32,000 bases of DNA from Vulcanisaeta distributa DSM 14429. GTDB taxonomy: Archaea > Thermoproteota > Thermoprotei > Thermoproteales > Thermocladiaceae. Location of the stretch: contig NC_014537.1 in the NCBI RefSeq assembly GCF_000148385.1, forward strand, positions 150,001 to 182,000, read 5' to 3'. Below are positions 5,860-32,000 of this stretch, one piece after another; the first letter of the stretch is position 1, and each line of letters starts with the position of its first letter. The notes under the pieces were generated by a model. It searched no databases. It worked only from the letters and a program-made list of their open reading frames with translations, and was not told the origin of the DNA. The translations under genes were made by a program, and so were the position numbers.

Positions 5860-5901
5860 CAAATCACCGGCAATAACTACCTTAGAATTTACACTTAAAT
5901 T

Positions 5902-12369: not shown

Positions 12370-12730
12370 TTAGCAATTGCCTAACCTCAACCTCCGTATC
12401 GTACGTGAAGGAGACCTGGCTACGCCTTGCCAATTCATAGAACGCCAGGTATAGGCCCCTGGTCAGAGACTTAGCGTACTTATCAACAACACCTATTACG
12501 TAGGGCAGACCATCAACACCAATATTCCTGGCGAGCCACTTAACGAGGCCTTCAACGACATCCCTCATCCCATCATACGTACTCCGCAGAACCTCAACCC
12601 TGAATACCCTTGACCCCAACCCACTGTACACGTACCAAAACACCCTCTCGGGGAAGGTGTACGTGGTTATCTTACCACTTTCGCGATAGACATGCCTGAA
12701 GGGCCCAATGATTATTGGGTCGAGGACCCC
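12341..12730 (-). CDS. nurA: NurA-like nuclease, C-terminal part (frame open from 12730; ORF track lists 12341-12643)
   Basis: 'GLPYVIGVVDKYAKSL' resembles the C-terminal NurA motif. The reading frame stays open upstream to 12730, where it meets the other frame at a G5 run. Confidence 0.55.
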   Translation of the reverse strand, partial: GVLDPIIIGPFRHVYRESGKITTYTFPERVFWYVYSGLGSRVFRVEVLRSTYDGMRDVVEGLVKWLARNIGVDGLPYVIGVVDKYAKSLTRGLYLAFYELARRSQVSFTYDTEVEVRQLLSEVVGSAVA

Positions 12731-15356: not shown

Positions 15357-16196
15357 TTAATCACCCTCAGGTTGTGCTATTAAGGAGTTAATTAACTCCT
15401 CGACTGTGTAGTTGCTGGGTACTGTTGCGTATTTAATGGACTTAATGTTACCCATCGAGTCAGCCCTAAGCGTCATTATTGACTTGACCAATAGCCTGGA
15501 GTTCTGCTTAACCCTAACCATGGCGTCGATTAGGTGTATGTAGTAGATTGAGTATGACGCTGCCAGCCTAATCAACATGCTTGGGCTATATGGCTTGAAG
15601 AATTCATGGGGCCCAATGACGGCGGTCCAGATCCCAAGGCTTGATCCGCCACCATCAATCCTAACAATCACGTTATAGCCCGGTGGGTCGAAGATGTTGA
15701 AGAAGTGGCTATTACCATTGATGTAATGCACCTTACTCCAACCATTACTAGCCCTGGCAGCCTCCCTGAAGGACTCCTCATCAAACTCACCAATGTCCAC
15801 AATTCCTGACTCAGGCCCTAACCAACCTAAGTCATCAATGAGTCTCTCCGGATCTATCCTAGGCCTAGCCTCAAACTCAACAATAAAGGCTTCCAGGGCC
15901 TCCGCATCGCTGGGTATAATGATACCATACTTACTTACCAAATTCTCCTCAACCAACTTAGCTATCTTAACCATGGTATAGTCACTCTCAACAAGCTGCT
16001 TACCGGCATCCGTAACCCTATAAACGCCAACACCAACCCTCTCAATTAAGCCACGCTTAATAAGGTAATTCAGGTAATTACCACAAGCACCCCTACTCAT
16101 GTTAAGAAAACTACACAACTCACTAAACCTAGCCGAACCACCCTTCTCAACCACGTACTTAAGCAGGGCTAGGTAAAGCCCCCTCCTACCACCCAT
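15357..16196 (-). CDS. wHTH (MarR/ArsR-like) transcription regulator with about 200-aa C-terminal domain
   Basis: 'LLKYVVEKGGSARFSELCSFLNMSRGACGNYLNYLIKRGLIERVGVGVYRVTDAG' is a classic winged-helix pattern. It is similar to the 19617-20666 product ('GTVGRLLERLVKADLIERSGKGIYKLK'). Confidence 0.7.
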   Translation of the reverse strand: MGGRRGLYLALLKYVVEKGGSARFSELCSFLNMSRGACGNYLNYLIKRGLIERVGVGVYRVTDAGKQLVESDYTMVKIAKLVEENLVSKYGIIIPSDAEALEAFIVEFEARPRIDPERLIDDLGWLGPESGIVDIGEFDEESFREAARASNGWSKVHYINGNSHFFNIFDPPGYNVIVRIDGGGSSLGIWTAVIGPHEFFKPYSPSMLIRLAASYSIYYIHLIDAMVRVKQNSRLLVKSIMTLRADSMGNIKSIKYATVPSNYTVEELINSLIAQPEGD

Positions 16197-16207
16197 AGAG
16201 CCTCACC

Positions 16208-16329
16208 AAGCCATCAAGTTCTAAATTTATAAACCATACGTTAGAATGCAAATTAGAATTACGAGATAATTAACGATGTTCTAACTCTAGTTCTAACATG
16301 TAACTTAAAAACTTAGAACTTGATGGCTT
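16208..16329. promoter_or_regulatory. divergent promoter/operator: perfect 17-bp inverted repeat plus internal TTCTAA/TTAGAA hexamer array
   Basis: 'AAGCCATCAAGTTCTAA' (16208-16224) is the exact reverse complement of 'TTAGAACTTGATGGCTT' (16313-16329). Further copies are TTAGAA at 16241-16246 and 16253-16258, and GTTCTAAC at 16278-16285 and 16290-16297. A palindromic TATA 'TTTATAAA' lies at ~16225-16232 and 'CTTAAAAAC' at 16304-16312. Confidence 0.55.
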
Positions 16330-16335
16330 AAGTGG

Positions 16336-17526
16336 GTGGGTGTGATGGCTGAGTGCACGCCTAGGATTAGGGAGGTCAGGTATTGGGATGAGGCGTGGTG
16401 GGAGGAGGGGTTTAAAGGCATTGACGAAGCCTACTCAAGGCTAAGAGGTCTACTAGATGCCGTTAAGGAGGTTGAACTCAAATTAACCGGCAGTGACCTA
16501 AGCCAGCTACTGAGGAGTCAGCAAATGAGGGACTTCACGATGAAGGTTATCCTGGGTGGTTTCAGGCAGGAATGCGTAAATAAAACGCTGAATGCCGACG
16601 ATGTTAAGGGGTGCTTTAACAGTAACGCCTTAGCTAGATTCTACAGGGAGGTCTTCGGAATAGGGTTAAGCAATGATGACATTGCAAAGTTCGTTAATGT
16701 AGCGCAGTATGTAGGGCTGGAGAAGGCTGGTGAAGGCTTGAGGATAGTGAGTATGAGGAGTTACGTAATGGATACTTTAAATGGTATTCTAACTAGCTTC
16801 ATTAACGTATATAAGGTTGCCGGGAGGCAGGTGCCGAACCCGATGAGGTATAATGTAGATAAGCCTGAGGATTTAGCCCAGGCATTCATAGACACTACCA
16901 ACGCATTACTTAAGCTTCTCCCACTCTACAACCCATTCACATTCTTCATACAGTCACTGGACTTCACGCCAAAGCCGTATCTAAGGCTAATGTACTGCGA
17001 TAAACTATTCAGCAGCGACGTAACGAACCTAATGGCTAAGTACGGGATTAGGTTAACAACACTACTGAAACCCAGCATTAGTAAGGAGCTTGATGAGGAA
17101 CTAGCCATAATAGGGCATGAGGAAAACAGCCTAGGAAGACACCTACTAGCCACAGTATGGCACATTTACGAATTAACGTATTGGCTTAAGGGTAAGGATT
17201 ATGTTAAGAATATCGATGATGAGTTCAGGAAGTACGTCGAAAAATACTCAATCTACCTTGACGAATTCTACAGAAGATTAACAGGCAGCGGCTTTGAGGG
17301 TGTATGTAGCATGATGCTAGATATTAATATTTATTATGGTAGTAATATTAATATATATGGTCGTAGTATATTTGGACGTGATGTATTCTCATTTAGTCGT
17401 CGTGGTTGCGGTGAAATTAGAATGTCGTTAAGTTATAGCGAATTTCTCGAGCTATTCTCGCCGTTGATGTTCCTTGGACTGATTTTTAGACACCCATTAT
17501 CCAATGAGATATTTACTGTTGGGTGA
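16336..17526 (+). CDS. hypothetical protein (396 aa), paralogue of 7170-8396 product
   Basis: Shares the 'NPF.FF...Y.R..Y.D' block with the 408-aa protein. GTG 16336 lies about 28 nt from the TATA-like 16304-16312, and ATG 16345 is an alternative start. The 3' end (about 17300-17526) is AT-rich and uses CGT Arg codons. Confidence 0.6.
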   Translation: MGVMAECTPRIREVRYWDEAWWEEGFKGIDEAYSRLRGLLDAVKEVELKLTGSDLSQLLRSQQMRDFTMKVILGGFRQECVNKTLNADDVKGCFNSNALARFYREVFGIGLSNDDIAKFVNVAQYVGLEKAGEGLRIVSMRSYVMDTLNGILTSFINVYKVAGRQVPNPMRYNVDKPEDLAQAFIDTTNALLKLLPLYNPFTFFIQSLDFTPKPYLRLMYCDKLFSSDVTNLMAKYGIRLTTLLKPSISKELDEELAIIGHEENSLGRHLLATVWHIYELTYWLKGKDYVKNIDDEFRKYVEKYSIYLDEFYRRLTGSGFEGVCSMMLDINIYYGSNINIYGRSIFGRDVFSFSRRGCGEIRMSLSYSEFLELFSPLMFLGLIFRHPLSNEIFTVG

Positions 17527-19388
17527 TTTGCATGAGTATTGAGGTTGCTGTTGGTGAGGTTGATGAGGGGGTTGTTAATGTTATTTATAGGCTTAGGGGT
17601 GGTGAACAGGTCGGTGTCTCCGGCTTACCCACGTCTCAGGGGGTCCTGGAGTATGGGTTTAAGGTGCATGTGGCTAAGCCTGACCTAGGCCTGCCTAAGG
17701 AGCCTAGGCTTGAGATCACTCCACTTGACTCCACCACACCATCCATAACACCCATTGGGCTTAGGCCGGGTAATCCTGTTGAGGCCCTCTTCATCATACC
17801 TAGCGGTTTATTGATGAGTGTTAATATTAATTACGAAACACCCCAATTACCTCAATCATCACTCCTCAGCCCCATACCCAGTCTCCCGGCAGTTAATGTT
17901 GAGTTCGTTAAGGAAGCCACCGTTGAGTTGGTTGGGCTTGAGGACCTGCTACCAAAGATAAGGCCTGTATTAAGTCCTCAGTTGGGCGCCGTTGATGTCA
18001 GTTTCATCGAGGTTGGTAGGGTTGGCTTAAACCTAGACCCCTCAACATCAATCCTTCCAAGCGGTAGACCGAGTATGTTAAACCCGGTTGAGGTTTCCTT
18101 CCAGCAGGCAATGGCTTCGATGGACATCTCAACCACAGTACCCCTAACCGAATCGCAGAGGCAGGTCAATACGACAACATTAACTGAAGAGGAGATTAAG
18201 ACTGCCCAGGCGGTTGAGGAAGTATACAGTGCCGAGGAGCACCCAATTCTAGGCCTAGGCAATGTAACCCCGGAGAAGCCAGTAATTATACTCGCCCATA
18301 GGCCTAAGGAGGAGAAGGCTAACTACATTGAGTTTCTTAAGAGGTTTCTTAGGGAGGTTTATAGGGTTAGGGTTGGTGGTTTGCCGGCACCTAAGCATGT
18401 GAGTAATCCACTGGATCTTAGGCTCCTCCTCCCAATCGAGGTTGGTGCCGGCGGTAGGTTATTCATCCTAGACCTAACCAGCGAGTTGGGAAGCCATCCT
18501 AAATTCGATACTGACCTTAATAGGCTTAGGGATAGGCTTAGGGAGCTATTCTCACAGGGCTTCGGCTTCATAGTACTCTACGGTGATGAGGATTCGTTGA
18601 GGAGTATTCGAGGGAGCCTGTGGAGGGAGTTCAACATATGGAGGCCCGTTGATGTTTCAATAATGGGTGAGGATGTTGGGCTTCTCAAGCTCCTAACTCA
18701 CTTAATGTGGGGTGATGTTGAGGGTTCGGTTAGGGATGAGGCTGGCGCAGGTCTAGACGTGGTGACTGTGTACCTAGAGGATGAGTTTTGGAGAAGACTT
18801 GGGGAGGTGGCTAGGGACTTCAATGTCCTGGTTAAGGTTAGGCCAAGCTCAAGCCCTGATGAGGGTGGTAGGGAGTCTATGACGCACTACCTAACCAAGG
18901 CATTCGTAGTTAGGCACCTCATCGATGAGTTGAAGAGGGAGTTCATGGAGAGTGGGTTGGGTGAGGACGATGCGTTTAAGAAGGCATTAGATTGCGTTGA
19001 GACTGAGTACCAGTACCCGTTGGAGAAGGAGAACATTAGGCTTGACATCTATGTCAAGCAAAATTGCGGTTCAAGGCTAAGTGGATTGGCTGTGGAGGTC
19101 GAGACCCTATACGGCACTGGGACCGTCGTTCATAAGTTGCTGGAGACCGTGGAGTCCAGGGTTGGTGCTGGTGTTAAGGGGCTTTGGGTTGTGGTCCCAA
19201 ACCCGCAGGCCGTGATTTACCTACCGCTACTGCTTAGGCTTAGGAACCACGTGAGGAGTAAATATGGTGACATTGAACTCTACACACTCGATATACACAA
19301 CGGCAAGTTAGTGAAACTAACCGAGGTAGCAAAGAAAATACTAAACACAGTTAAGGAGGTGAGCGAAAAACAAAAACAACAAACATGA
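17523..19388 (+). CDS. hypothetical protein (621 aa), paralogue of 8387-10060 product; P/S-rich N-terminal region, conserved C-terminal domain
   Basis: GTG 17523 overlaps the upstream stop (GTGA), and ATG 17532 is an alternative start. See the shared blocks listed for 8387-10060. Confidence 0.65.
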   Translation: MICMSIEVAVGEVDEGVVNVIYRLRGGEQVGVSGLPTSQGVLEYGFKVHVAKPDLGLPKEPRLEITPLDSTTPSITPIGLRPGNPVEALFIIPSGLLMSVNINYETPQLPQSSLLSPIPSLPAVNVEFVKEATVELVGLEDLLPKIRPVLSPQLGAVDVSFIEVGRVGLNLDPSTSILPSGRPSMLNPVEVSFQQAMASMDISTTVPLTESQRQVNTTTLTEEEIKTAQAVEEVYSAEEHPILGLGNVTPEKPVIILAHRPKEEKANYIEFLKRFLREVYRVRVGGLPAPKHVSNPLDLRLLLPIEVGAGGRLFILDLTSELGSHPKFDTDLNRLRDRLRELFSQGFGFIVLYGDEDSLRSIRGSLWREFNIWRPVDVSIMGEDVGLLKLLTHLMWGDVEGSVRDEAGAGLDVVTVYLEDEFWRRLGEVARDFNVLVKVRPSSSPDEGGRESMTHYLTKAFVVRHLIDELKREFMESGLGEDDAFKKALDCVETEYQYPLEKENIRLDIYVKQNCGSRLSGLAVEVETLYGTGTVVHKLLETVESRVGAGVKGLWVVVPNPQAVIYLPLLLRLRNHVRSKYGDIELYTLDIHNGKLVKLTEVAKKILNTVKEVSEKQKQQT

Positions 19389-19616: not shown

Positions 19617-20666
19617 CTAGTGTGGTTCTTTAGTGAGCGTAAGTAGGGTGTTTGGTACATTTGATGGTTCTAGGTTCTCAATTTTCATTATCGTGTTTAT
19701 TAACTTAGTGAGGTCGTAACCCTGTGTAAATGGTATGTAGTGAATGAATCCTTTACGACTCTCTGTATATATCATGGAGCGAGGTATTACGTTATTACTA
19801 AATAATCTAAATAATGATAAAAACTTCATGGTATTTACTAATGAAATCATAATTAGCAGTCTTATTATTGATTCGTACGTGCCATCACTCAATTGCTCAT
19901 CACCGTACGTCGCTGACGAGACGACGCCCATGTACCTAAAGCCCTTATTCAATATTACCATGGTGACAAATTTAACGGGTTTCACAATTGAAGAATCAAC
20001 TTTAAGTTCAGTTGTACTGTATATGTATAAGTTCGATCCATCATGCCTGCACCCATCACCCCCCTGCTTAAGTACATTGAATAACTCCTCGTGTTTCTCG
20101 ATCTCACTAAGCTCTATATTTTCATAACTCGATGCAAATGCTTCTCCTAAAATGACAAGCCCAAAGTATTCAGTATTATTTTGATGATAATAAGGATTAT
20201 AATGGTATTCCCTGGCTAAATATTTACAATTTATAACTCTAGGAATTGCGTTAATAATGTTAATAATTTTATTGGTATTTTGAGCATTGGTCTCAAAGCG
20301 TGAAAGCAATAGGTCCATTCCTGACAATGTGCCGAGATCTCTCGGTAGTATTACCGGTTTAAAATAACTCAGCTCATTCAGTATTTGATTATTAATGTCA
20401 TACAATGTACGCTTAATGGCACTGTAATTACTCAGTTTTAATTTATAAATTCCCTTACCACTTCTTTCAATCAAATCTGCCTTTACCAGCCTTTCTAATA
20501 ATCTACCCACTGTACCTTTACTTTTTACGCTGTACTTTTTATGAAGAAACTCAAAAATCTCTTTAAACGAAGCGCTGTAATCAGAAGGTTTAGAACTTAA
20601 GTAATCTAAAACGTCTATCTCCTGCGCCCTTAACCCACTGGTCACACCTGCCCTCTTCCTTACCAT
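19617..20666 (-). CDS. wHTH transcription regulator with about 270-aa C-terminal domain (TTG 20681 also possible)
   Basis: 'DVLDYLSSKPSDYSASFKEIFEFLHKKYSVKSKGTVGRLLERLVKADLIERSGKGIYKLKL' fits a wHTH pattern. ATG 20666 lies about 26 nt from the TATA 'TTATAAAAA' (20690-20698). It is divergent from the 20775+ operon. Confidence 0.65.
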   Translation of the reverse strand: MVRKRAGVTSGLRAQEIDVLDYLSSKPSDYSASFKEIFEFLHKKYSVKSKGTVGRLLERLVKADLIERSGKGIYKLKLSNYSAIKRTLYDINNQILNELSYFKPVILPRDLGTLSGMDLLLSRFETNAQNTNKIINIINAIPRVINCKYLAREYHYNPYYHQNNTEYFGLVILGEAFASSYENIELSEIEKHEELFNVLKQGGDGCRHDGSNLYIYSTTELKVDSSIVKPVKFVTMVILNKGFRYMGVVSSATYGDEQLSDGTYESIIRLLIMISLVNTMKFLSLFRLFSNNVIPRSMIYTESRKGFIHYIPFTQGYDLTKLINTIMKIENLEPSNVPNTLLTLTKEPH

Positions 20667-20687
20667 AACATGTTTGCGCAAGAAATG

Positions 20688-20757
20688 TATTATAAAAATT
20701 ACGCGCGAACAGCACGAACACCATAGAACGTAATCCAGTTCGCGCTAAAAATAACTC
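20688..20757. promoter_or_regulatory. divergent promoter pair with 8-bp inverted repeat and helically phased GAAC repeats
   Basis: TATA-like elements are at 20690-20698 and 20745-20754. 'GCGCGAAC' (20703-20710) and 'GTTCGCGC' (20738-20745) are inverted repeats. GAAC occurs at 20707, 20716 and 20726 (spacing 9-10 bp), and GTTC at 20738. Confidence 0.45.
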
Positions 20758-20774
20758 GGGGTAGAGCCAGCACT

Positions 20775-21650
20775 ATGTTGGTGAGCCAGATGGGTCAGGT
20801 GGAGTTAGAGGGTGTTGATGAGGTCCCGTTAAAAACAGGTCTCGAGTGGGTTCCGGAGGAGGGTGTTGAGTTTAAGGGGCGTAGTGGGGTTGATTGGCAT
20901 GGTGGGTTCTGTGAGGGCATGGTGTATGACGTACTCGCCTATTACAAGCCGTATACGCACAATAGGGATTGGGGTATTTACTATGTGGTGCCGAGTATCG
21001 CCAATGATTTAGAGAGACTTATTGAGACTATGTATCATCAAGGCATTAATGAGGAATTGATAGCATTAACGGTAGCCATATACCCAAGCTTAATAACAAT
21101 ACATGAGGTTTGCCACCACACTCTCGAGAATGTAAGGAGGTTAATGGGGCTAAGAAACATCTATGAATCACATGATGAGGGCTTGTGCGAGTATACTGCG
21201 TTCAAATTAATTGAGGGGTCGGGTATTGCCCATCCATACCCGCTAGTAGCTTTGCTGAACCCGTTAACGCCCATGGACATTCATTTCCATGGCGACCACA
21301 TTCACGTAATAACGAGGTTTGGGGACTTCGTAATACCATTCCCAATATCAATACGCTGGCGTTGGGGAGTTAGATATCCACTAATGGTTAGTGGGGGTGA
21401 TGTTAGGAGGGCGCTTACCATACTCTATAAATGGTGGGGTAGGGGTAATGACCCCATTTATAGGCCTAGAATAAGCAATAACTATACCGCGGAGTTCCTG
21501 AGGAATTACTGGCTGCAATTGAGGGGTGACTTGGTACCATTCATGGACCACGCACTAACAAACAAGCCAGTCAAGGAGAGCCTATGGACAAAACTCAACA
21601 CTGACGATAAAAGAATCAGCATAATTACGAAATGCGGTGATAAGGCATGA
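20775..21650 (+). CDS. HExxH metallopeptidase-like protein (291 aa)
   Basis: 'TIHEVCHHTLE' (HExxH at 21102-21116) is followed by 'HDEGLCEYTAFKL', which resembles the HExxH...E..A..FA layout of ImmA/IrrE-type (M78-like) peptidases. It is a paralogue of the 5993-7186 product. Its stop overlaps the next ATG as ATGA. Confidence 0.65.
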   Translation: MLVSQMGQVELEGVDEVPLKTGLEWVPEEGVEFKGRSGVDWHGGFCEGMVYDVLAYYKPYTHNRDWGIYYVVPSIANDLERLIETMYHQGINEELIALTVAIYPSLITIHEVCHHTLENVRRLMGLRNIYESHDEGLCEYTAFKLIEGSGIAHPYPLVALLNPLTPMDIHFHGDHIHVITRFGDFVIPFPISIRWRWGVRYPLMVSGGDVRRALTILYKWWGRGNDPIYRPRISNNYTAEFLRNYWLQLRGDLVPFMDHALTNKPVKESLWTKLNTDDKRISIITKCGDKA

Positions 21651-24600
21651 TAAACAACGAAGAAACAATACTTAAAAACGGGATTGAAATAAATAACAAA
21701 ATGTCTAAGTCTCTCCCCTGCTCGCCTTGGATTGATTATACTAAGGCCCATGAAAATATTCGTAATGAATTAGAGAATACCATAACGAACTACGTAATAA
21801 AGCAGGTAAAGGGTATACGAACGCCCGTGATCGTGGCCCCCTACGGCTCAGGAAAAACAACGCTTCTAAGGCACTTACTATGTTATTCAATAGGGCAGGG
21901 TATACCTGCCATAAAGATAAACTTACTTGATTTCGTAAGTTTCCTAGAGTCGCAAAATATTAGTGATATAAATGAGGATAACCTTATCGGCTATATATCA
22001 TTATTTTGTACTAAAGCGATAGAACAAACAATTAACTGTTTGCAATCAAGTGGACAAAACTGCTTATCTTATGTTAGGAGTATTATTGATGAATTTAGTA
22101 CCATAAACATTAATAAGGATATTGCAATTGAAGTGTTAAGTAAATTCCTGAAAACTAAAGATCAAAGGTGTGTACTGCTTATTGACGAAATCGAGGAGGG
22201 TTACGAACATCTAAGGAAGATTGTAAGATTCGGAACAACGCCTTTCAGGGGAATTTTTGACTTGGTATATCAGGGTTTGCCAAGAATATTCCCGATTCTC
22301 GCGTTTGGACCATCATCGATTTACAGCGAGATTGTTTCTAACGCTGGCTCATGGAGGGTAGTCTCGTATGTAATACCGATGATTATGCCAACAAATATTA
22401 CGCAAAGGGTTACGAATTTGTCTCCGTACATTTCTAACTTAATTTGGTGGATAGGTAAGGGTAGACCTGGGCATGTTGATAAATTATTACAGATGAAAAT
22501 ACATGTTGAGGCTCAGAATGCATTGACTAACTGCCAGGGTATACTAGAGACAGATGCTGTGAAGAACCTGCAGGGTACATACGTAGTAGGCAATATACCG
22601 TACATTGATCAAGCAGCCTACAGGAGAATAGAAACAAGCTTAAATAATGATGAAAGAAATCTCTTCCGCATCTTATCAGTATTAGTGGGTCCTGTTCCCG
22701 AGTCTATGCTGAGCAAATGTATTGATATGAATAAAATAAAGTATAGCAAATTACCAGAGTATTTCATAAAATCCACACAGCTTATTAAGGTTGATGATGC
22801 CTTAAATATTCTCAAGAAGGTGCTCCTAAACCTTGGCTACACAATAAATGATTTTGCTAGAGACATACTTTACGCATTATTCTATTCATGGAGTGATCAT
22901 GATATGATGATACTCGATAAGAGGGGCCTAACCGAGTTGATAGGTATTGCTAAGGATATGGCAATCGAATTCTATCAAAACGACCTATTCAATGCATTAA
23001 GTAAACTGGACCTGGACGCACTATATACGGAGTTATTAAACAGTAAGAGAGATAGTAATGAGCATTACTATGCCCTAGCACCCTTAACGACCCTTGGCGC
23101 TATTTATCCCCCTGTTTTGTTAATGCCATTAATTGGTTGCTGTAAAGAAAAATCGCTTGATGATTTATATAGAATATTTGACAAATTTACAATAAAAGAT
23201 TTACTCAATCTAAGTGATAGACTTCAGGAAGAAATAATTAATTATGCCCACATGAGAGGTATGGACAATGAGACAATCCAAAATATGAATAAGTATAAAG
23301 TAGTTTTTGTATTAAGCAAATACATAAAGAATGATGAATTCATAAAACAAATTAAGAAACTCCTCACTAATGACTATATACATGGTATAGTATTTATACC
23401 ATTGCCTTATAATGAGGACCCAAGCTCGATAGTAAGCTCACTAAGAGAGTTGTGGCAGGATTACATTGATGTTGGATTAATCGACATTATGTACCCAAGT
23501 GCTCGCGCAATACTGTTCTTAATGGGACTTATTTATAATAAGTACGTAAGATGTGACGTTAAGTATACGGATAGAGAATTAGGTATGTATGATCAATTCA
23601 TGAGGGCTATAATTGAATTACTAAAAGAAATCATTATTAATAGATTACCGTCAAAAAGAAATAAAATAGCTCAAGCCATAGTATCCAGCAGAACCACTGA
23701 AGCAATTAAAGAGGAGCTTGAAAATATACTAAGTGAAGGATATAATAAAGTGGGAAGCGGAAAGGAAAGGTATTTACTCCTTCTCGCCGGCGCTGAACAT
23801 AGAAATATACTTGAGCAATATCTAAATACATTAATAGCAAAGAAAAGCGGCAAATATGCTTCATCAACAGGCATTATTGAAGATGTGGTAAAAAGATTTA
23901 AGGAACTTATTAATACATTGCATGATCATGGAATTGAAATAAAGCATGAAGTGACGAGCGGATTTGAAAGCTTTTTGGATAATGCCTGGGATTATTACGA
24001 TGACATAAGAAGCAGATGGGATCAAATATATGATCAGATCCAAAGCGGAGACGTATTTAATAAAGTACTCGAGGTATTAAACGATTTATACACGATTTCA
24101 AACTTGCCGAAGGAGGCGGAGACTCGTCAGTTAATTGAGGAGGAATTTAATAAAATAACGAAGAAAGTGATCGGCAACAATGAAAATAATATTAAAAGTT
24201 TAATTACTTGGATAGTACTACAAAAAATGCTCAATAAACATCCAGATAAGCTACCCTTTAATGATGAAGAGGAATGTAAAGATTCCACGGAAGAATTAAG
24301 CTCTTCTCTAAGTAAGTTAGGGGATCTCGATAATATCGTTAGTGACATAGATAAGATACTTAATAAAATTGGAAAATACATTGATAATAAATCGGTAGGG
24401 ATATTAAATGAACTAGAAAAAATTAAAGAAATAATAAATAATACTAAAGATAGTATTAATGAGGTATCGCATTATATAGAAGATTGCACTAATCGGCTTG
24501 TGGCTTTGAACACAGTAGAGAAAATGTGGTTTTTAGAATTTATAATGAGAGGCTGGAGTTCAGGGAGAAAAAGAAATAAAGGATTAATGGCTAACTTGCT

Positions 24601-25006
24601 CGATAATATTTCTAGTATAATTGATGATATTAATTCTTCACTACTTAATAACTTAAAGACTGTATTAAGGAATTTGAATGATATTGAAGCAGATCTTGAA
24701 GAACTTAAAAAATTAACCGCAAGTGATAATGAGTTATCATTAGGAAGCGTATTCGCGATAGCGGATTATGGTGCGTTAATAGAGCGTTATAGAAAAGACC
24801 TTGAGCAGGTATTGTTGAATTCAGGTACAATTCCTGAATTAGCTCAAAAGCTAAGTATACTAAAAGACGCCGTTAATGACTTAGCAAACACAATTAAAAC
24901 TATTAGGAGGGACAATGAGGTACTAGCGTTAATAAAAAAGATTGAATATAATATTAATAGGTTATCTAAGGAGATTCAAGAAATTGAAGGAGGTGAGATT
25001 TCATGA
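21647..25006 (+). CDS. large P-loop (AAA+/STAND- or BrxC-like) ATPase with about 800-aa helical/coiled-coil C-terminal region, 1119 aa
   Basis: Walker A 'APYGSGKT' (21836-21859) and Walker B 'CVLLIDEIEEG' (22172-22189) lie about 110 aa apart. 'GKGRPGHVDKLL' is sensor-2-like. The C-terminal third is K/E/N/I/L-rich with heptad-like character. Confidence 0.8.
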   Translation: MINNEETILKNGIEINNKMSKSLPCSPWIDYTKAHENIRNELENTITNYVIKQVKGIRTPVIVAPYGSGKTTLLRHLLCYSIGQGIPAIKINLLDFVSFLESQNISDINEDNLIGYISLFCTKAIEQTINCLQSSGQNCLSYVRSIIDEFSTININKDIAIEVLSKFLKTKDQRCVLLIDEIEEGYEHLRKIVRFGTTPFRGIFDLVYQGLPRIFPILAFGPSSIYSEIVSNAGSWRVVSYVIPMIMPTNITQRVTNLSPYISNLIWWIGKGRPGHVDKLLQMKIHVEAQNALTNCQGILETDAVKNLQGTYVVGNIPYIDQAAYRRIETSLNNDERNLFRILSVLVGPVPESMLSKCIDMNKIKYSKLPEYFIKSTQLIKVDDALNILKKVLLNLGYTINDFARDILYALFYSWSDHDMMILDKRGLTELIGIAKDMAIEFYQNDLFNALSKLDLDALYTELLNSKRDSNEHYYALAPLTTLGAIYPPVLLMPLIGCCKEKSLDDLYRIFDKFTIKDLLNLSDRLQEEIINYAHMRGMDNETIQNMNKYKVVFVLSKYIKNDEFIKQIKKLLTNDYIHGIVFIPLPYNEDPSSIVSSLRELWQDYIDVGLIDIMYPSARAILFLMGLIYNKYVRCDVKYTDRELGMYDQFMRAIIELLKEIIINRLPSKRNKIAQAIVSSRTTEAIKEELENILSEGYNKVGSGKERYLLLLAGAEHRNILEQYLNTLIAKKSGKYASSTGIIEDVVKRFKELINTLHDHGIEIKHEVTSGFESFLDNAWDYYDDIRSRWDQIYDQIQSGDVFNKVLEVLNDLYTISNLPKEAETRQLIEEEFNKITKKVIGNNENNIKSLITWIVLQKMLNKHPDKLPFNDEEECKDSTEELSSSLSKLGDLDNIVSDIDKILNKIGKYIDNKSVGILNELEKIKEIINNTKDSINEVSHYIEDCTNRLVALNTVEKMWFLEFIMRGWSSGRKRNKGLMANLLDNISSIIDDINSSLLNNLKTVLRNLNDIEADLEELKKLTASDNELSLGSVFAIADYGALIERYRKDLEQVLLNSGTIPELAQKLSILKDAVNDLANTIKTIRRDNEVLALIKKIEYNINRLSKEIQEIEGGEIS

Positions 25007-26274
25007 GTATTTCATTAAGTATAAAAGAGTATACTAATAAATTAAATAGTAATTATCAGCAAATTAAAAACTCCCTAAAGGAGTTAAACAATATTTTAGA
25101 ATCTCTAATGGAATTAATTTCATTGGCTAAAAAATTAAGGTTGAAAGTACCGCCTTTTCCAAGTATCGAAAAAATTGAATTGGATCAAAATAAATTAAGC
25201 AATGTTATTAATGGCTTAAGAAATTACTCCAATAATGTAATTTTGGTCATTATGAATCAATTATTGCCTGGCCTAAGTAATGATATTAATGATTGCGAAA
25301 TAATAACAGATATGTTAAATGGTACTAAAAACATACTTAAGGACTTTATTGATAGCGTGCAGGATTTATGGAAATATCGTAATGAACTTAAGTATTTACG
25401 CCAGTGCATCAAAGGGTATTGTGATCTTGTCACTAGGGTAATACATGATGGAGAACTGAAGGAGGAGGTAAAGGTATTGTCTGAGATATTCAGCATTAAG
25501 GATAAGCTTAATGGAATAAGCTTGCCTATTACGAAAGGGTTAAATCAATGCATAGATAATGTTATAAATAATGTAATAAAGGATTGCAATCTTCCTTCAT
25601 TTAACGATATCGAGAAGAGTCTCAAGAATATGCTTGACTTGCTCACGTATTTTGATAATATGATAAGTGTAGTTAATGGATTACGTACTTTGCAGTATAA
25701 TGAGTATTCACAACAAAAGGGAGATTATTGCCCTGAAATAGCGAAGATCTTTGATGATTTTATGAGCACCATTAAGGGACTTAATCTCAATGAGCTAACA
25801 TTAAAATGCGGTACACCTGAGGAATTAATAGGTCTCGTTAAAGAGATTGAGGATAAAAGGGATCAATATGTCAAGAATATACGAGATAGTCAAGCTCAGG
25901 TGATGAATTACTTAAACAGATTTAAAAAGGTATTAAGCAATAGTGAATTACGAGAAGAGTTTGAGAATACGCATAATTCGTTGGAAAAAATAACTAATCA
26001 ACTTATTACGGAGATATCCGGCAAAAGTGTGGAAGGAGAGAATATTAGACAGATATTGGATGAACTGCAGAATAAGTTAAACAGTATTTTACAGTTCATA
26101 TGTGAGAAGTTGATACCCGGGTTAGGATTGAAAGATGAGGAGTTTAAAGTAATAGTTGAATTAATCAGGAAAGGTGGAATCGCAGATTTTAAAGATTTAA
26201 GTGATGTAGGTCGTGACATAATCATCGAGCTTTGTGAAAAGGGTATATTGAGGTGCCAAGTAAGTTTGGGGTGA
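25003..26274 (+). CDS. coiled-coil protein (423 aa) with possible C-terminal wHTH
   Basis: ATG 25003 overlaps the upstream stop (ATGA). The sequence is N/K/E/L/I-rich and helical throughout. The C-terminus 'EEFKVIVELIRKGGIADFKDLSDVGRDIIIELCEKGILRCQV' is wHTH-like (tentative). Confidence 0.65.
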   Translation: MSISLSIKEYTNKLNSNYQQIKNSLKELNNILESLMELISLAKKLRLKVPPFPSIEKIELDQNKLSNVINGLRNYSNNVILVIMNQLLPGLSNDINDCEIITDMLNGTKNILKDFIDSVQDLWKYRNELKYLRQCIKGYCDLVTRVIHDGELKEEVKVLSEIFSIKDKLNGISLPITKGLNQCIDNVINNVIKDCNLPSFNDIEKSLKNMLDLLTYFDNMISVVNGLRTLQYNEYSQQKGDYCPEIAKIFDDFMSTIKGLNLNELTLKCGTPEELIGLVKEIEDKRDQYVKNIRDSQAQVMNYLNRFKKVLSNSELREEFENTHNSLEKITNQLITEISGKSVEGENIRQILDELQNKLNSILQFICEKLIPGLGLKDEEFKVIVELIRKGGIADFKDLSDVGRDIIIELCEKGILRCQVSLG

Positions 26275-26278
26275 GCCT

Positions 26279-29206
26279 GTGATTTGTTATAAGTTCGATA
26301 AGCCATTAATACCTTCTGTTGAGGAATTATTCCGTGAATGCGGTAAGGACGTTAATTTCATGAATAACTACATTATTAATAGTGTGCTTTCGTACATTGA
26401 AAGGAAAGAGCAGGATTTAGTGCTTGGAATGCAATATAATGATTGGGTAATCATCGACAGTAGCGCTAAGGACGAGATTAAGGAGCAAATAATTAATTAC
26501 ATTACTAAGTTTGCGATAGCTTGTAACGGGACTAATCGTAATAAGGACTATCTAAAGAAGGTGAGAGAGGAAGTTGATAGTAATAGGGTTGTTGAAAAGG
26601 CCCTATGCTACTTATATGCATTTGGCATATACGGTGACTGCATTAGTAGGTATTTGTTGATTAAACCCCCTGATGGTGATGAAGTACCTGACTATGAAAT
26701 CCCTGGTTTAGATAATGAAGTTGTTGAGAGGGCGAAGGACGTATTTAATAAATGCGTTGAGAAACTTAGTAAGTGGCGTGAGTATTGGGTGAGGAGTAGG
26801 TTCATAGAGATTGTTCGTGACTTATACCTACTCAAGCAGAGGTTCCCTGATAAGTCGGTGTTTGAGTCATACATGCTTATTGATAGGGTATTTGCATATG
26901 CATACCCACGTAATTTACCGCTTGGTGTTTACACGGTAAGTGACGTATGTGGTGATGGCACGTCAACGATTAACCTAAAGAAGTTAACTTACAGCTTCTT
27001 CAAGTCATACCATGATTACCTAATAGGTGCGGTAAATGAAAATATAGATGAGGAATTCGAAGAATTTTGGGAAATATTCTGTTATTTTCTACGTAAGGCA
27101 TTTAGTGATAGAAGATTCTATAGGTTTCAGATAAGGGGCGTTGAAACCGCTATTAAGAAATTATTGGGTATCTTCAATACATCCGAAAGCCGAGGGGCTG
27201 GTAAGATTGATTATTTAATAATTGCCGCACCAACAGGTAGCGGTAAGACGGAGGTTATGGTATTAACAGTATTAATTGCTGCGCTGGCGAGAAAGATAAT
27301 CCTAATAAGGCATGGACTTGATGATGAGAAAAACGTACCGATCGCATTAATGGTATATCCAAGGAGGTCCCTAGCCAATGATCAAGTATCAAGATTAATA
27401 GAGTACCTGAGTATAATAAATGAGAGGTTAAAGAACAAACTGCTGCTAACGATCAATTATACGGATATAAGAGACAAGAGAGAGTATGAAGATGCCATTA
27501 ATTCTGTTAAAGTCGGCGCAAAGCCAGTCCCCTTGCAGCTTAAGTATGGGGTTCTAGCATCCTTAATTAAAGATGGTGAGAATTATTATGTCGAACTTAG
27601 ATTTTTGACATGCCCCAGGAGGTTCACGTCAGGGTCTGGCAGTATTTATCCGAGATTTAGGGTTGTGAGGAGGGGTGATAGGTACGAGGTTGATGATTCG
27701 GTTGTGTACTGTGGTGATAATGCATTGAGTTTCATAGCCCTAACTAAGGACAGGGTTAGGGAGAGATTGGGCGATATTCACATAACAATATTCGAAACAC
27801 TTAGGCATAACTTATTTTCGAGAAGTTTCGAGAATTTATTCGGCATCTGTAGAAAGGCTGGGGATAACAAGGTGGTGTTTGATTACCCACTGATAATAGT
27901 TCTTGATGAGATACACACATACACTGACATACCTGGTGTAAGGTACACTTACATGCTTAGGAGGGTTCTAAATAGAATTAGGTATTATAGCGAGAATTGT
28001 AATGGGGATGGGTTACCAGGTAATCTCGTAATAGGCATGAGCGCAACAATACCTAATGCGGGTGAATTCCTTAGTAAATTATTCTTTTCCGAGGATATTG
28101 AAAAGAATATTAATGACTACCTAATTACTGTTGATGATGAGGAAACAATACCTCTCGGTAATGAATACTTCATAATAACGGTACCGACGCGTGGGGCTCC
28201 CGTGGATGCGTTAACGGTATCTATACAGACGATAATGAATACATTTTACAACATACCATCCATACCAATAGATAGTGGATATGTAAAGAAGGGCATAGTC
28301 TTCCTGGAAGAATTCAATGTATTGAGGAGGATGAAAAGGGAACTTTGGAATAGGGAGCAGGGAGCAATATATAGAGTTGTTGAAATTAACAATGAAGAGG
28401 TTGCTTTTGGTCTTCAAGACTTGAGAAATCCAAGAAATAGGTATTTTTACGAGGTAACACTGGAGGATTACGGTGATGATGCGAAAGTCGTCGATAATAT
28501 AAGAAGGGGTAAAATAAGCAGAGTTATTAGCGCTAGGTCGTGGCTTGATGGGGAGTTATGGTGGGGTTACATGCTAGATACTATAATCAATTACTATCCG
28601 AAGAATAACTTAAGTGATTACGTAACCACTAGATTTAACAGGGTTGTTGAGTATTCAAGTAGAAAGCGAGGGGATTTAAGGAGGGCCGATATAGTGGTCT
28701 CAACGAGTAGTTTAGAGGTGGGTGTTGATTATTCAGATGTTGTTTTAATATATCAACATGGTGCTCCCCCCAATATATCATCGCTCATACAGAGGGCGGG
28801 CAGGGGTGGTAGAAGGCTTTTTGAGAATCCGTTAATGAGGATTATAGTGGGTATTCAATTGTCGCCGGATCTACCGCATCAATCCTGGCTTTTCGAAATA
28901 TTTACCAGGGTCAAGGACTTAAGAAAGGCGATTGATTATGACAAGCTATTCCTGCCGAAAGCGAGTGAGGAAATAATGAAACAAGTGCTCGCTGAATTAG
29001 CCCTTGAATACTATGTATTGAATAACGGAAAGTTAACAAATAATTGGGAATGCAGATTAACTGGTTGGCTTAAGAAAAATAAAGAAAATATAATTAATTA
29101 CTCACAGTGGGTTTTCGCTAATGTTGAAAAAAGTAGGTTAAATAGCTTCATTGATGAGATAATAAATTACCTTGATAAAAATTGCAGAGATCAAAGTGGA
29201 AGATAG
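26279..29206 (+). CDS. SF2 DEAD/DEAH-box-type helicase (DrmA/Lhr/Ski2-like core) with about 300-aa unknown N-terminal domain, 975 aa
   Basis: Motif I is 'AAPTGSGKTE' (27224-27250), Ia 'VYPRRSLANDQ', II 'VLDEIHTY' (DEIH at 27905-27916) and III 'MSATIPN'. Motif V is 'VVSTSSLEVGVDYSDV' and VI 'QRAGRGGRR' (28790-28816). The GTG start lies 4 nt after the upstream stop. Confidence 0.9.
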   Translation: MICYKFDKPLIPSVEELFRECGKDVNFMNNYIINSVLSYIERKEQDLVLGMQYNDWVIIDSSAKDEIKEQIINYITKFAIACNGTNRNKDYLKKVREEVDSNRVVEKALCYLYAFGIYGDCISRYLLIKPPDGDEVPDYEIPGLDNEVVERAKDVFNKCVEKLSKWREYWVRSRFIEIVRDLYLLKQRFPDKSVFESYMLIDRVFAYAYPRNLPLGVYTVSDVCGDGTSTINLKKLTYSFFKSYHDYLIGAVNENIDEEFEEFWEIFCYFLRKAFSDRRFYRFQIRGVETAIKKLLGIFNTSESRGAGKIDYLIIAAPTGSGKTEVMVLTVLIAALARKIILIRHGLDDEKNVPIALMVYPRRSLANDQVSRLIEYLSIINERLKNKLLLTINYTDIRDKREYEDAINSVKVGAKPVPLQLKYGVLASLIKDGENYYVELRFLTCPRRFTSGSGSIYPRFRVVRRGDRYEVDDSVVYCGDNALSFIALTKDRVRERLGDIHITIFETLRHNLFSRSFENLFGICRKAGDNKVVFDYPLIIVLDEIHTYTDIPGVRYTYMLRRVLNRIRYYSENCNGDGLPGNLVIGMSATIPNAGEFLSKLFFSEDIEKNINDYLITVDDEETIPLGNEYFIITVPTRGAPVDALTVSIQTIMNTFYNIPSIPIDSGYVKKGIVFLEEFNVLRRMKRELWNREQGAIYRVVEINNEEVAFGLQDLRNPRNRYFYEVTLEDYGDDAKVVDNIRRGKISRVISARSWLDGELWWGYMLDTIINYYPKNNLSDYVTTRFNRVVEYSSRKRGDLRRADIVVSTSSLEVGVDYSDVVLIYQHGAPPNISSLIQRAGRGGRRLFENPLMRIIVGIQLSPDLPHQSWLFEIFTRVKDLRKAIDYDKLFLPKASEEIMKQVLAELALEYYVLNNGKLTNNWECRLTGWLKKNKENIINYSQWVFANVEKSRLNSFIDEIINYLDKNCRDQSGR

Positions 29207-29220
29207 ATGGTGATGAATCC

Positions 29221-31965
29221 ATGAGCACTCTTCAGAAGATAATTGAATCGTCTAAATTATTAAGAAATTACATACCTGATAGATTATTCGCCGAGTCAAA
29301 TTTGCCCCAGGTTAAAGTAGTGCTTGATGGCAAAGTCATTGCAGTAGAAGATGCATCATTGGTAGTCTCATCCTCTGGGTACATACCAGGAAAGCCCACG
29401 TATAGGGCATTACCAACAACAGGCACTTTCATACCCCTAGATAATAGCCGTTTTGACGAAAATATTAGGCCTATTATTACTCGAATTTCATATAATGATA
29501 GGAAATTGTATGAACCATCACCTGGTTATCCGAGTCGCTATAGTATTGATGAAATAGAGATTCCCGATGAATACAAGTATTTACTGTATTTACTTAAGGA
29601 GGTACTTAAAACTGATTATTTACCAATTGAATTTTATGCTCTTAGTAAGATTAACCCATTAAGATTTAGATGCCCAGCCAGTAAAAAGAAAAGAATATCT
29701 CTGGATAATACTCATTGGTTATTCTTTTCAAGAGCAAGAACCAATGTTGAGGTTACTAACAACATTAGTTTTTCACACTCATTTTATGCATACTTAGATA
29801 GAAGCAATTCATTTCCTAGGTTCTCGATTTATAACCCGCAGGGATTAATAAAGCCTATTAAGCAATATAATATTTGTGGAATACTTGATGCAGAGATTTA
29901 TACTGTTAAAAATGCATTTTACGGTATTTATGCTGTCGATGTATATGCGGTTTTAAAGGGCAAGTACGTAGTTGGCGATTCTAAAGGTGGGTGGTGTCGT
30001 TACACAATTAAGAGCTCCGATATAAAGACGCCTAGAGATAATACCAGCTCTACTTCAATGTATTGTATAAGCACTAAAAATGGCTGTAGATATAGTAACT
30101 ATTTCGTTAAGATTTTTGTAGACGGTGATCATAACAATTGGAATCCTGTAATACTTGGATACGAGATTAAAAACACGAGAATGCTCACGCTAGACATTAA
30201 GGATTTAATAAGAAAAATAGCCTCATCAATAGTCAATATCGGTGAAGTAGAGCAAGGACAGGACTTAAAGCTTGATTATGAATATAAAACCCTCAGCACA
30301 AATACTGCAGTAGTTAATCTACTAAGGCATTACCTATCTCATGACTTGGTAATAACGTATTACTTAACAAGGCTTGGCTTCACAAAGATCGATAAATACG
30401 TTAATCTTTCAATACTAATAAATGATTTATTCCTCGGTAATAAACTAACCGTGAAGTTGGAAAAGGACGATGTTAAGGATCTTGCTAGTGATATTATTAA
30501 TGATTTCATTAAATCATTTGATAAGGAAATAAGGCAGTCCTGGATATCATTATTACGATATGTATTATCCACGGTCAAAGGTGAGAGGTTAGAAACATAC
30601 CGTATATTTCGTGAATGTAAGAATAATAAAAATACTCAAAGATACTGTATTCCTCACGAGGAAGCGGAGAATATTTGGAATAACATAGAAAAGCGAATAG
30701 AAGGTATCTTAAAGAACTATAGTGAAATACCGAGTTACTTTGGGGTTAGGACTACTTATTGGTACGTTGGCGCTATTATTGATATCATAAAGCATACATT
30801 AAGTCATCATTTAATAAGAACTATTAGCACAAGATATAGTGTTAACCCAAGTAAACTTATTGAGTATTATTACGAAATGAGAGGAGACGCTAAGGTTTCC
30901 ATCATGGAAAGGGACTCTGGGGGTATTGGTGTATTAAATGTGGCCTTTGAGTCATGGGAAAAATCTGATAAGGAATTGAGGGAGAGACAAGTCGCTATTG
31001 AGGACCTCATACTATCCTTAGGTAAGTGCCTTGTCGGTACTCCTGAAGACTTACTGCACTTCGCGTTGCTGAATGATGATATTCGTGAAAGGTTATGTAG
31101 CGGTAAAGATAATGATGTAAGAGAGGGTATAAGGGAGATTATTAGGAGATTGAACATAATAGTTACCCCAGATGAGTTTGAGGAGACTATTAAGTTATGG
31201 AAATCAATATACGAGGAGGCTGATAGACTTACACGAATATTACGCAATGGGAATAATTACTTAGGTAATGAACCATGTAAATTATTAAGGGCTGTTCATG
31301 AGTTAAGACATGAACTGGAGAAGAAAATGAGGAGGTTTCCGGACATGGACGAATTGATGGCTTATATGCTCGAGAATATTGATGAATACTCCATACTTAA
31401 TGATTTGCTAACTAAGATGCTAGAGAGGGGGCTTAGGACCTCTGGCAGGTTTAGGGAATTTCTTCATGAGTTGTATGGAACGAATGATTATGTTAAGAGG
31501 TTCATAGGGGGTGTTAATTTTATCCTGAGAAGCAGAATACAGGACATCGATCATTTAAAGGAACTGGTGAGAAACAGTAATGATATCGTGTCAAAGTACG
31601 GCACTAAGGCGCTTGAGAAAATAACTGAATGTGTAGGTAAGCGAAGGGATGGTGATGATACGTGTAAAGCAGTTATACATGCATTGAAGCTTTTGGGTAG
31701 GGCACTCCGTGCGGTGTTAATGAGGATCTCGCTACTTAGTTGTAATGGTGCATGCGGTATGTGCTATGTGAATACTAAGTCATGCAGTAGGTTTGGCGCA
31801 CCCTTCATTCAGGCCAGGACACTTGATAGGAGGGTCCTTAAGGTACTTGCCTCCGAACTCGTTAGGCACATGAGCGATATCGTTAGGGATTACTACGGCG
31901 TTAATAAGGATGTTGATGTTATTGTGGAGCTTGGCGGTGAGCCCCGTACATTGAGGTGTGAATAA
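29221..31965 (+). CDS. DUF1998-like (DrmB/MrfA-C-terminal-like) protein with C-terminal Cys cluster, about 914 aa (ORF open from TTG 29182)
   Basis: 'HTLSHHLIRTIS' (from 30793) and 'ERDSGGIGVLN' fit the DUF1998 core as I recall it. The terminal 'CNGACGMCYVNTKSCSRFG...ARTLDRRVL' (Cys codons at 31741, 31753, 31762 and 31783) has the same layout as the DUF1998 Zn-cluster. ATG 29221 lies 15 nt after the helicase stop. Confidence 0.8.
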   Translation: MSTLQKIIESSKLLRNYIPDRLFAESNLPQVKVVLDGKVIAVEDASLVVSSSGYIPGKPTYRALPTTGTFIPLDNSRFDENIRPIITRISYNDRKLYEPSPGYPSRYSIDEIEIPDEYKYLLYLLKEVLKTDYLPIEFYALSKINPLRFRCPASKKKRISLDNTHWLFFSRARTNVEVTNNISFSHSFYAYLDRSNSFPRFSIYNPQGLIKPIKQYNICGILDAEIYTVKNAFYGIYAVDVYAVLKGKYVVGDSKGGWCRYTIKSSDIKTPRDNTSSTSMYCISTKNGCRYSNYFVKIFVDGDHNNWNPVILGYEIKNTRMLTLDIKDLIRKIASSIVNIGEVEQGQDLKLDYEYKTLSTNTAVVNLLRHYLSHDLVITYYLTRLGFTKIDKYVNLSILINDLFLGNKLTVKLEKDDVKDLASDIINDFIKSFDKEIRQSWISLLRYVLSTVKGERLETYRIFRECKNNKNTQRYCIPHEEAENIWNNIEKRIEGILKNYSEIPSYFGVRTTYWYVGAIIDIIKHTLSHHLIRTISTRYSVNPSKLIEYYYEMRGDAKVSIMERDSGGIGVLNVAFESWEKSDKELRERQVAIEDLILSLGKCLVGTPEDLLHFALLNDDIRERLCSGKDNDVREGIREIIRRLNIIVTPDEFEETIKLWKSIYEEADRLTRILRNGNNYLGNEPCKLLRAVHELRHELEKKMRRFPDMDELMAYMLENIDEYSILNDLLTKMLERGLRTSGRFREFLHELYGTNDYVKRFIGGVNFILRSRIQDIDHLKELVRNSNDIVSKYGTKALEKITECVGKRRDGDDTCKAVIHALKLLGRALRAVLMRISLLSCNGACGMCYVNTKSCSRFGAPFIQARTLDRRVLKVLASELVRHMSDIVRDYYGVNKDVDVIVELGGEPRTLRCE

Positions 31966-32000
31966 TGCTATGGATATGTAAGGACTCTAGTAGAAGCCTT
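31965..32000 (+). CDS. 5' end of a further operon gene (partial, truncated by window)
   Basis: ATG at 31965-31967 overlaps the TAA stop (31963-31965) as TAATG, and the frame stays open to the window end (MLWICKDSSRSL...). Only 12 codons are visible. Confidence 0.25.
   Translation, partial: MLWICKDSSRSL

Follow-up and report, generated by a model that had tools for sequence, protein, structure and literature searches.

A winged-helix regulator gene divergent from an HExxH gene that heads a likely defence operon in a Vulcanisaeta-like archaeon

The window analysed here, a stretch of 32,000 nucleotides (nt) of DNA from a Vulcanisaeta-like archaeon, carries within a variable, defence-type island a back-to-back promoter unit formed by two genes, namely a winged helix-turn-helix (wHTH) regulator gene on the minus strand and, on the plus strand, a gene for a protein with an HExxH motif (the HExxH gene; Table 1). 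The list of open reading frames (ORFs) and the sequence itself place the two genes in divergent orientation and confirm both ORFs together with the motifs HEVCH and EGLCEYTAF, in agreement with a first-pass annotation that had described a wHTH protein with a long C-terminal domain encoded divergently from an HExxH gene at the head of an operon. The wHTH protein more likely starts at the ATG than at the upstream TTG of the longer ORF, the resulting 349 amino acids (aa) being the length of the database protein P0093. On the other side of the promoter region, the HExxH gene opens an operon of five closely spaced genes that runs through position 31965, and its stop overlaps the start of the first cargo gene by 4 nt (21647-21650). 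The window stops at position 32000, and further genes of what is likely a defence operon may lie beyond it.

Table 1. Features of the wHTH/HExxH locus, in positions of the window.
Feature	Position	Strand	Remarks
wHTH regulator gene	19617..20666	minus	349 aa from the ATG at 20666; longer ORF to the TTG at 20681 (19617-20681, 354 aa)
TATA-like box, ATTTTTATAA on the minus strand	20690..20699	minus	~28 nt upstream of the wHTH ATG; read by eye
Left dyad arm, GCGCGAAC	20703..20710		at the position of the B recognition element (BRE) of the wHTH promoter
GAAC repeats, GCACGAAC (20712-20719) and TAGAAC (20724-20729)	20712..20729		GAAC cores (20716-20719 and 20726-20729) 9-10 nt apart
Right dyad arm, GTTCGCGC	20738..20745		abuts the TATA-like box of the HExxH operon
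TATA-like box, CTAAAAATAA	20745..20754	plus	~25 nt upstream of the HExxH ATG; read by eye
HExxH gene	20775..21650	plus	291 aa; database form of 286 aa begins at Met6; first cistron of the operon
HEVCH motif (residues 110-114; H110, E111, H114)	21102..21116	plus	within predicted helix 93-123
EGLCEYTAF motif (residues 135-143)	21177..21203	plus	at the start of helix 134-149; putative third zinc ligand, ExxxE/D motif
Cargo gene 1, P-loop ATPase	21647..25006	plus	1119 aa; long coiled-coil tail
Cargo gene 2, coiled-coil protein	25003..26274	plus	423 aa
Cargo gene 3, DEAD/DEAH helicase	26279..29206	plus	975 aa; resembles the N-terminal part of DpdJ
Cargo gene 4	29182..31965	plus	927 aa; weak likeness to the C-terminal region of DpdJ and to the MZB domain

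The HExxH protein belongs to a family that appears undescribed. Scans of the protein against Pfam, NCBIfam, PADLOC and PHROGs gave no family match, Pfam scans of 54 relatives returned only single sub-threshold matches (DA1-like, DUF4344 and M78), and a survey of archaeal "dark matter" published in 2014 makes no mention of the family (PMC4158269). Close homologues, 26 in number, are found in Vulcanisaeta, Thermocladium, Stygiolobus and hot-spring metagenomes; an exhaustive profile search collected 62 representatives at the 50% identity level, and a second search with a wider alignment made few additions. In the alignment of 54 diverse members, Y57, G67, I68, H110, H114 and E135 are invariant and E111, H115, E139, A142 and F143 are kept in at least 90% of the sequences, and the family signature is HExxH-x20-ExxxE, with E135 lying 20 residues after H114. 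Conservation of the motif, which the proposal of a metallopeptidase in the first-pass annotation presupposed, thus extends together with that of the downstream Glu over the aligned family (54 of the 62 representatives). Elsewhere in the protein, an N-terminal region with the motifs EW-P and YYxPY/WGIY is conserved, and the family has a C-terminal part of ~140 aa.

As for the fold, a first structure model reached a predicted local distance difference test score (pLDDT) of 64, and a model built from the wider alignment reached a pLDDT of 82 and a predicted template modelling score (pTM) of 0.82, with block means of 91-96 over the HExxH helix. Specifically, the latter model comprises four beta-strands, a helix at residues 72-88, the helix 93-123 that bears the HExxH motif and the helix 134-149 with E135 at its start. 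The classic arrangement of the gluzincins, clan MA(E), has the HExxH motif on one helix and the downstream Glu on the next, with a beta-sheet preceding both. Profiles of the whole family found nothing among the PDB sequences, while the best and sole peptidase match of the core profile (residues 40-152) was the minigluzincin projannalysin (4jix), at a marginal E-value of 0.026 and in an alignment that spans the beta-strand, the backing helix, the HELxH motif and the Glu. Foldseek gave no match at E<0.1, be it for the pLDDT-64 model against PDB and BFVD or for the pLDDT-82 model against PDB; a match to FtsH at E 0.76 was dismissed as meaningless, with a root-mean-square deviation of 24 A. On the metallopeptidase fold that had been anticipated, the evidence points both ways: the marginal projannalysin profile match speaks for it, and the two models, neither with a metallopeptidase neighbour in Foldseek, speak against it. 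Membership in Peptidase_M78/ImmA/IrrE, also anticipated, was not borne out, as PF06114 gave no match to the HExxH protein of the window at E<=1 and was found in only one of the 54 members, at E 0.17. Moreover, no clear transmembrane segment is present, the maximal 19-residue Kyte-Doolittle value being 1.69, over the catalytic helix, and neither the protein nor its 54 relatives matched the M56 or transpeptidase families of Pfam. From its motifs, the HExxH protein is probably a soluble gluzincin-like zinc hydrolase of a new family.

The divergently encoded regulator consists of a MarR-like N-terminal winged helix of ~85 aa and a C-terminal domain of ~260 aa of unassigned fold, which is conserved within the family and had no match in profile searches against PDB and Pfam. 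The presence of a wHTH rather than an Xre-type HTH, as the first-pass annotation had it, is supported by the profile matches: the family profile recovers MarR 2eth (E 3e-4) and the PhiH1 repressor 3b73 (E 6e-4) from PDB, and the N-terminal ~85 aa of the single protein match MarR_2, Penicillinase_R and AbiEi models weakly (Pfam, PADLOC). The Penicillinase_R model PF03965 reaches E 0.016 and 15.9 bits, below its cut-off of 22.6, with MarR models scoring better, and it is matched by three of nine family members at a best E-value of 8e-4; the AbiEi model of PADLOC matches the wHTH domain at E 3.4e-5. An AbiE-type identity was considered and rejected, since the matches are those of a generic wHTH and no AbiEii nucleotidyltransferase is encoded nearby according to the Pfam and PADLOC scans. 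A word-index homology search with the wHTH protein retrieved only the protein itself.

Between the start codons of the divergent genes lie 93-108 nt, in which a perfect 8-nt inverted repeat, GCGCGAAC-N27-GTTCGCGC, stands between the two TATA-like boxes and encloses the GAAC repeats, so that the inverted and GAAC repeats reported in the first-pass annotation could be located. The octamer GCGCGAAC occurs in the 32-kilobase window at the two dyad sites only, compared with a chance expectation of 0.21, and two occurrences were reached in 1 of 100 shuffles. Both dyad arms are perfectly kept in two syntenic loci of the Vulcanisaeta type (L004 and L049), the flanks of which have diverged, and the wHTH orthologue of L004, 31% identical overall, is more similar in the wHTH domain (49%) than in the remainder (31%), which fits a conserved operator. 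Sub-lineages of the regulator each have their own repeats abutting the TATA box (GTTCTAC, GTTCTAA, AGTACTAC and CGGTAcAAA). The spacing of the TATA-like box implies that the wHTH transcript may be leaderless.

Scans of genomes and metagenomes brought together 57 related loci (L numbers), the ORFs of which were clustered (C numbers), and the upstream neighbour of the HExxH gene is visible in 47 of them. This neighbour is a divergent wHTH gene of cluster C2 in 19 loci, a divergent gene of cluster C4 (~410 aa), not related to C2, in 16 and something else (hsdM, a TnpB fragment, ArsB or a CARF gene) in the remaining 12; a divergent C2 or C4 gene is therefore present in 35 of 47 loci (74%). C4 had no match in Pfam or PDB, and hhalign did not relate it to the C2 wHTH family (E 0.27; E 0.2 for the N-terminal regions alone); nor did hhalign relate C20 of locus L001 to either C2 or C4, or the 370-aa neighbour of the Saccharolobus islandicus homologue described below to C2. 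The loci in which the HExxH gene has no wHTH neighbour include L001, L005, L010, L011 and those of the Stygiolobus type. In L001, the HExxH gene precedes an ankyrin-repeat gene and has no adjoining regulator gene, and a 13-nt perfect inverted repeat (AAATTTTTTGTAC ... GTACAAAAAATTT; 9860-10000) lies between it and a divergent hsdM gene of a type I restriction-modification (R-M) system.

On the downstream side, at least eight cargo types follow the HExxH gene, mostly at a junction of -4 or 0 nt. The most frequent cargo consists of homologues of p396-p621, a gene pair also found elsewhere in the window (17 loci), followed by C17 (5 loci), by an ankyrin protein beside a type I R-M system (4 loci) and, with 3 loci each, by the ATPase-helicase set of the window, C30 with a superfamily 1-type ATPase, a PMT_2-like protein and a 78-aa ORF, while L021, L023, L028 and L033 hold the pair with no obvious cargo. 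Among the cargo of the window, the DpdJ model of PADLOC matches the 975-aa helicase at E 3e-40 and the 927-aa protein at E 0.003, at model positions 768-817, so that the two proteins jointly resemble a split DpdJ; the 423-aa coiled-coil protein has a faint DpdI match (E 0.014). The ATPase-helicase set may therefore represent a Dpd-like module for restriction in which no modification genes are visible. Nothing useful was obtained from PDB for p621, the 1119-aa ATPase or the 927-aa protein.

The borders of the HExxH gene coincide with exchanges on either side. The HExxH proteins of L036 and L037 are 96% identical, whereas the genes upstream of them, C2 and C4 respectively, are unrelated; nucleotide homology, at 94.7%, begins 15 nt inside the ORF and continues through the cargo. 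L019 and L014 have only the HExxH gene in common, from -17 to +100 nt and at 91% identity. In the window, the guanine plus cytosine (GC) content of the HExxH gene, 0.46, exceeds that of the wHTH gene (0.36) and that of the cargo (0.32-0.39), with a sharp break at the 21647-21650 overlap, and a similar contrast is found in L004 (0.46, 0.41 and 0.32-0.37, respectively). The composition suggests that AT-rich cargo was joined onto a resident-like HExxH gene, and the sharp recombination breakpoints on both sides suggest that this gene is an anchor for cassette exchange of both flanks.

The same window holds a paralogous wHTH gene (15357-16196, minus strand, 279 aa), with HTH_45 and AbiEi_4 matches (the latter at E 7.7e-6), which is divergent from the two-gene operon p396-p621 (16336-19388); this operon has no HExxH gene. 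In the intergenic region beside the paralogue (16197-16335), GTTCTAA/TTAGAAC repeats occur several times and are bracketed by a perfect inverted repeat of 17 nt (16209-16225 / 16313-16329). In the majority of the metagenomic relatives, it is homologues of p396-p621 that come after the HExxH gene.

Further homologues of the HExxH protein occupy other settings. In Acidianus sp. HS-5 (L070, 10001-10774) the gene lies between Csc1/Csc2 genes of type I-D and Cas6/Cmr genes of type III-B, and in S. islandicus (WP_012718847.1; L067, 10001-11068) it is part of an integrated element resembling a conjugative plasmid, with genes for a TraG-like ATPase, a Piwi-domain protein and an integrase nearby; neither a wHTH nor a C4 gene adjoins the Acidianus and S. 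islandicus homologues. A distant member, P0034 (L058, 492-2129, a 545-aa ORF), is joined to about 140 initial positions of a P-loop ATPase of the DUF499 (BrxC/PglY) type. Whether P0034 is a genuine fusion or two neighbouring genes with a frameshift, HExxH protein and ATPase are adjacent, which mirrors the HExxH-then-ATPase order of the window. The contexts of the distant relatives P0030, P0039, P0043 and P0048 were uninformative, and no relatives turned up among the viral contigs of IMG/VR, the plasmids of PLSDB or the phages of GenBank.

These observations are tentatively read, with a confidence somewhat short of an even chance, as the wHTH protein being an exchangeable local repressor of both promoters and the HExxH gene, which stands first in variable operons and is co-translated with their cargo, encoding a conserved zinc hydrolase associated with islands. 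Specifically, the MarR-like wHTH protein would bind the dyad GCGCGAAC-N27-GTTCGCGC and the internal GAAC repeats, and the dyad arms would occupy the sites of transcription factor B (TFB) and of the TATA-binding protein (TBP) at two divergent, probably leaderless promoters, so that binding would occlude the BRE/TATA elements, and the regulator would repress its own gene together with the operon of five genes. The HExxH product would be made only upon firing of the promoter, its gene being translationally coupled to whichever cargo follows, and it would act by proteolysis, as an accessory to the island's output or as its effector, on a target not encoded next to it (a host, viral or cargo protein). 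It would not be the cognate anti-repressor of the adjacent wHTH, itself an ordinary and swappable repressor, and the HExxH gene would form a conserved anchor flanked by two exchangeable sides, that of the regulator and that of the cargo.

Several points weigh against this reading. It is difficult to see how a protease found alongside eight unrelated sets of cargo could be a component specific to its cargo. A divergent putative regulator adjoins the HExxH gene in 74% of the close relatives, as a regulatory cassette would, and the protease gene falls, like blaR1, immA and capP in the known switches, within the regulon of the repressor next to it. Moreover, a DNA-binding role of C4 is no more than possible (hhalign E 0.2), the promoter elements and leaderless starts are readings by eye, and the fold assignment draws on motifs and one marginal match, with nothing from Foldseek or Pfam.

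A rival reading is a protease-repressor switch: once stress or infection has been signalled, the HExxH protein would cleave the adjacent wHTH between its DNA-binding and C-terminal domains, de-repressing the operon with positive feedback. This is close to the ImmR/ImmA- or CapH/CapP-like module of the first-pass annotation, of which the divergent pairing, recurring with lineage-specific repeats and independently of cargo, is upheld, whereas the protease is not of the M78 family, the regulator is not of the XRE family and the partners are swapped. In favour of a switch are the regulator-like divergent neighbour in 35 of 47 loci and the independence of the HExxH gene from the cargo type, the overlap of the candidate operators with both promoters, the precedents with a protease gene in the repressor's regulon (10.1101/2022.04.27.489752; PMC6925264), the marginal minigluzincin match combined with an M56-like ExxC[DE] motif, and the weak Penicillinase_R matches in the wHTH family. 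Conversely, nearly identical HExxH proteins (L036/L037) stand beside unrelated upstream genes, with breakpoints at the gene boundary, which argues that the HExxH protein is not a dedicated cutter of the adjacent wHTH. A cognate pair is further argued against by the paralogous wHTH of the same window, which serves an operon without an HExxH gene, by the absence of an adjacent wHTH in 12 of the 47 close relatives (L001, L005, L010, L011 and Stygiolobus-type loci among the HExxH loci without such a neighbour) as well as in the Saccharolobus and Acidianus homologues, and by the GC content of the HExxH gene, which differs from that of wHTH and cargo. In addition, the HExxH gene is translationally coupled to the cargo and not to the regulator, and the joining of P0034 to a DUF499 ATPase likewise counts against a cognate pair. 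A switch is considered unlikely; if it were real, BlaI/BlaR1, a wHTH with a gluzincin, would be a closer parallel than ImmR/ImmA, an XRE regulator with an M78 peptidase.

The remaining explanations depart from the favoured reading in other respects. The His/Glu cluster of the HExxH protein might bind a metal for other hydrolytic chemistry or as a structural or sensing site, the protein then being no peptidase at all, as the lack of a structural neighbour among PDB peptidases for a confident model and of any profile match past the usual thresholds would allow; nevertheless, the HExxH-x20-ExxxE motif, invariant in the family and placed on consecutive helices after a beta-sheet, has the gluzincin layout, and the best PDB match is a minigluzincin, which makes this option quite unlikely. 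It is considered improbable that the two genes have no functional link, with the HExxH gene a well-conserved resident anchor for recombination and the wHTH regulating only itself or the cargo: the mosaic composition and the breakpoints found at either side of the gene would agree with it, whereas the divergent promoter/operator region that gene and regulator have in common does not, and the 4-nt overlap with the cargo start implies at least co-expression with the cargo. Lastly, there is very little likelihood that the locus is a toxin-antitoxin or abortive-infection pair, in which the AbiEi-like wHTH would be autorepressor and antitoxin, the protease the toxin and the cargo a later recruit. 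The matches of the wHTH and of its paralogue to AbiEi models and the four loci that carry the pair without obvious cargo are in keeping with such a pair, but the AbiEi likeness is limited to a generic wHTH, no AbiEii nucleotidyltransferase is encoded nearby, the two genes diverge and do not share a transcript, their partners are freely shuffled and HExxH genes occur alone.

Other gene blocks recur around modules of this type. Gene pairs made of a C3, C6 or C13 gene (~400-480 aa) and a following p621-like C1 gene (~550-660 aa) are found twice in the window (7170-10060 and 16336-19388) and up to three times per metagenomic locus (L012, L013, L034, L043). C3 is weakly related to C6 and C13 in hhalign (E ~4e-4), the proteins of these pairs had no match in Pfam, PDB or PHROGs, and the pair is an abundant, uncharacterised Thermoproteales module. 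On the minus strand, positions 10336-13506 hold genes for a HerA-like ATPase (677 aa) and a NurA-domain protein, followed by the 70-aa ORF C7 (13600-13812), a block that is syntenic beside wHTH/HExxH modules in many metagenomic loci. The gene for an AAA_5 ATPase of the MoxR/dynein type (3952-4980, minus strand) and its 293-aa neighbour (4981-5862) form another block (clusters C16 and C29), the synteny of which is kept in metagenomic loci. Scans of the window for tRNA genes and against Rfam gave no matches.

The regulation of archaeal defence islands, like most of the genes in them, is little known. A regulator beside a metallopeptidase-like gene that heads a defence operon is of a general kind already known, whereas the HExxH family appears undescribed; it marks the heads of variable operons in Vulcanisaeta and Thermocladium and is also found in CRISPR-Cas loci and integrated conjugative elements of the Sulfolobales, and the anchor behaviour of its gene bears on the diversification of archaeal islands. 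S. islandicus is genetically tractable, and if this holds for the host of WP_012718847.1 (strain M.16.27), the function of the family, whether a switch or a defence effector, would be directly testable there. There is a small chance that the HExxH protein founds a family of archaeal zinc proteases, so far undescribed, that a signal activates and that would inactivate whichever divergent repressor (C2 wHTH or C4) adjoins; if true, Thermoproteota would possess a portable protease-repressor switch to induce defence and mobile-element operons, an archaeal counterpart of ImmR/ImmA, CapH/CapP and BlaI/BlaR1 that evolved independently.

Among known systems, ImmR/ImmA, DdrO/IrrE and CapH/CapP resemble the present locus in that a repressor gene adjoins an HExxH gene heading mobile-element or defence operons, and modules of the ImmR/ImmA and CapH/CapP type are independent of their cargo, as is the present one (10.1101/2022.04.27.489752). 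Unlike in these systems, the HExxH protein has neither the M78 signature nor a recognisable C-terminal GAF-type domain, its partner is a MarR-like wHTH and not an XRE protein, the genes are divergent and not co-transcribed, and the partners do not co-vary, many members having no repressor neighbour. BlaI/BlaR1 and MecI/MecR1 have in common with the locus a wHTH repressor with dyads between divergent promoters, to which binding is here predicted, and a protease gene in the regulon; the putative ligand motifs HELSH ... EKVCD of MecR1 (PMC6925264) are paralleled by HEVCH ... EGLCE. In contrast to BlaR1 and MecR1, the HExxH protein has no transmembrane segments, no penicillin-binding sensor domain and no M56 match in Pfam, and, unlike BlaI and MecI, the wHTH protein matches Penicillinase_R below the Pfam cut-off. 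With the minigluzincins (projannalysin, proabylysin) and M48 the HExxH protein shares the character of a small, soluble archaeal protein and the 4jix profile match, but its family is ~3 times larger than the minigluzincins, with the N-terminal EW-P, YYxPY/WGIY region and with the ~140-aa C-terminal part that is absent from minigluzincins, and the projannalysin match is marginal in E-value and was not recovered by Foldseek. The wHTH protein resembles the AbiEi antitoxins and autorepressors in its weak model matches and in its architecture of an N-terminal wHTH and a sizeable C-terminal domain, and differs from them in that the latter domain is unrelated and no AbiEii partner is present. Lastly, BrxR and CapW are stand-alone, exchangeable regulators divergent from varied defence operons (10.1101/2022.04.27.489752); they carry WYL domains, unlike the present protein, whose C-terminal domain has no detectable relative, and the wHTH protein is like them a single DNA-binding regulator encoded divergently from variable operons.

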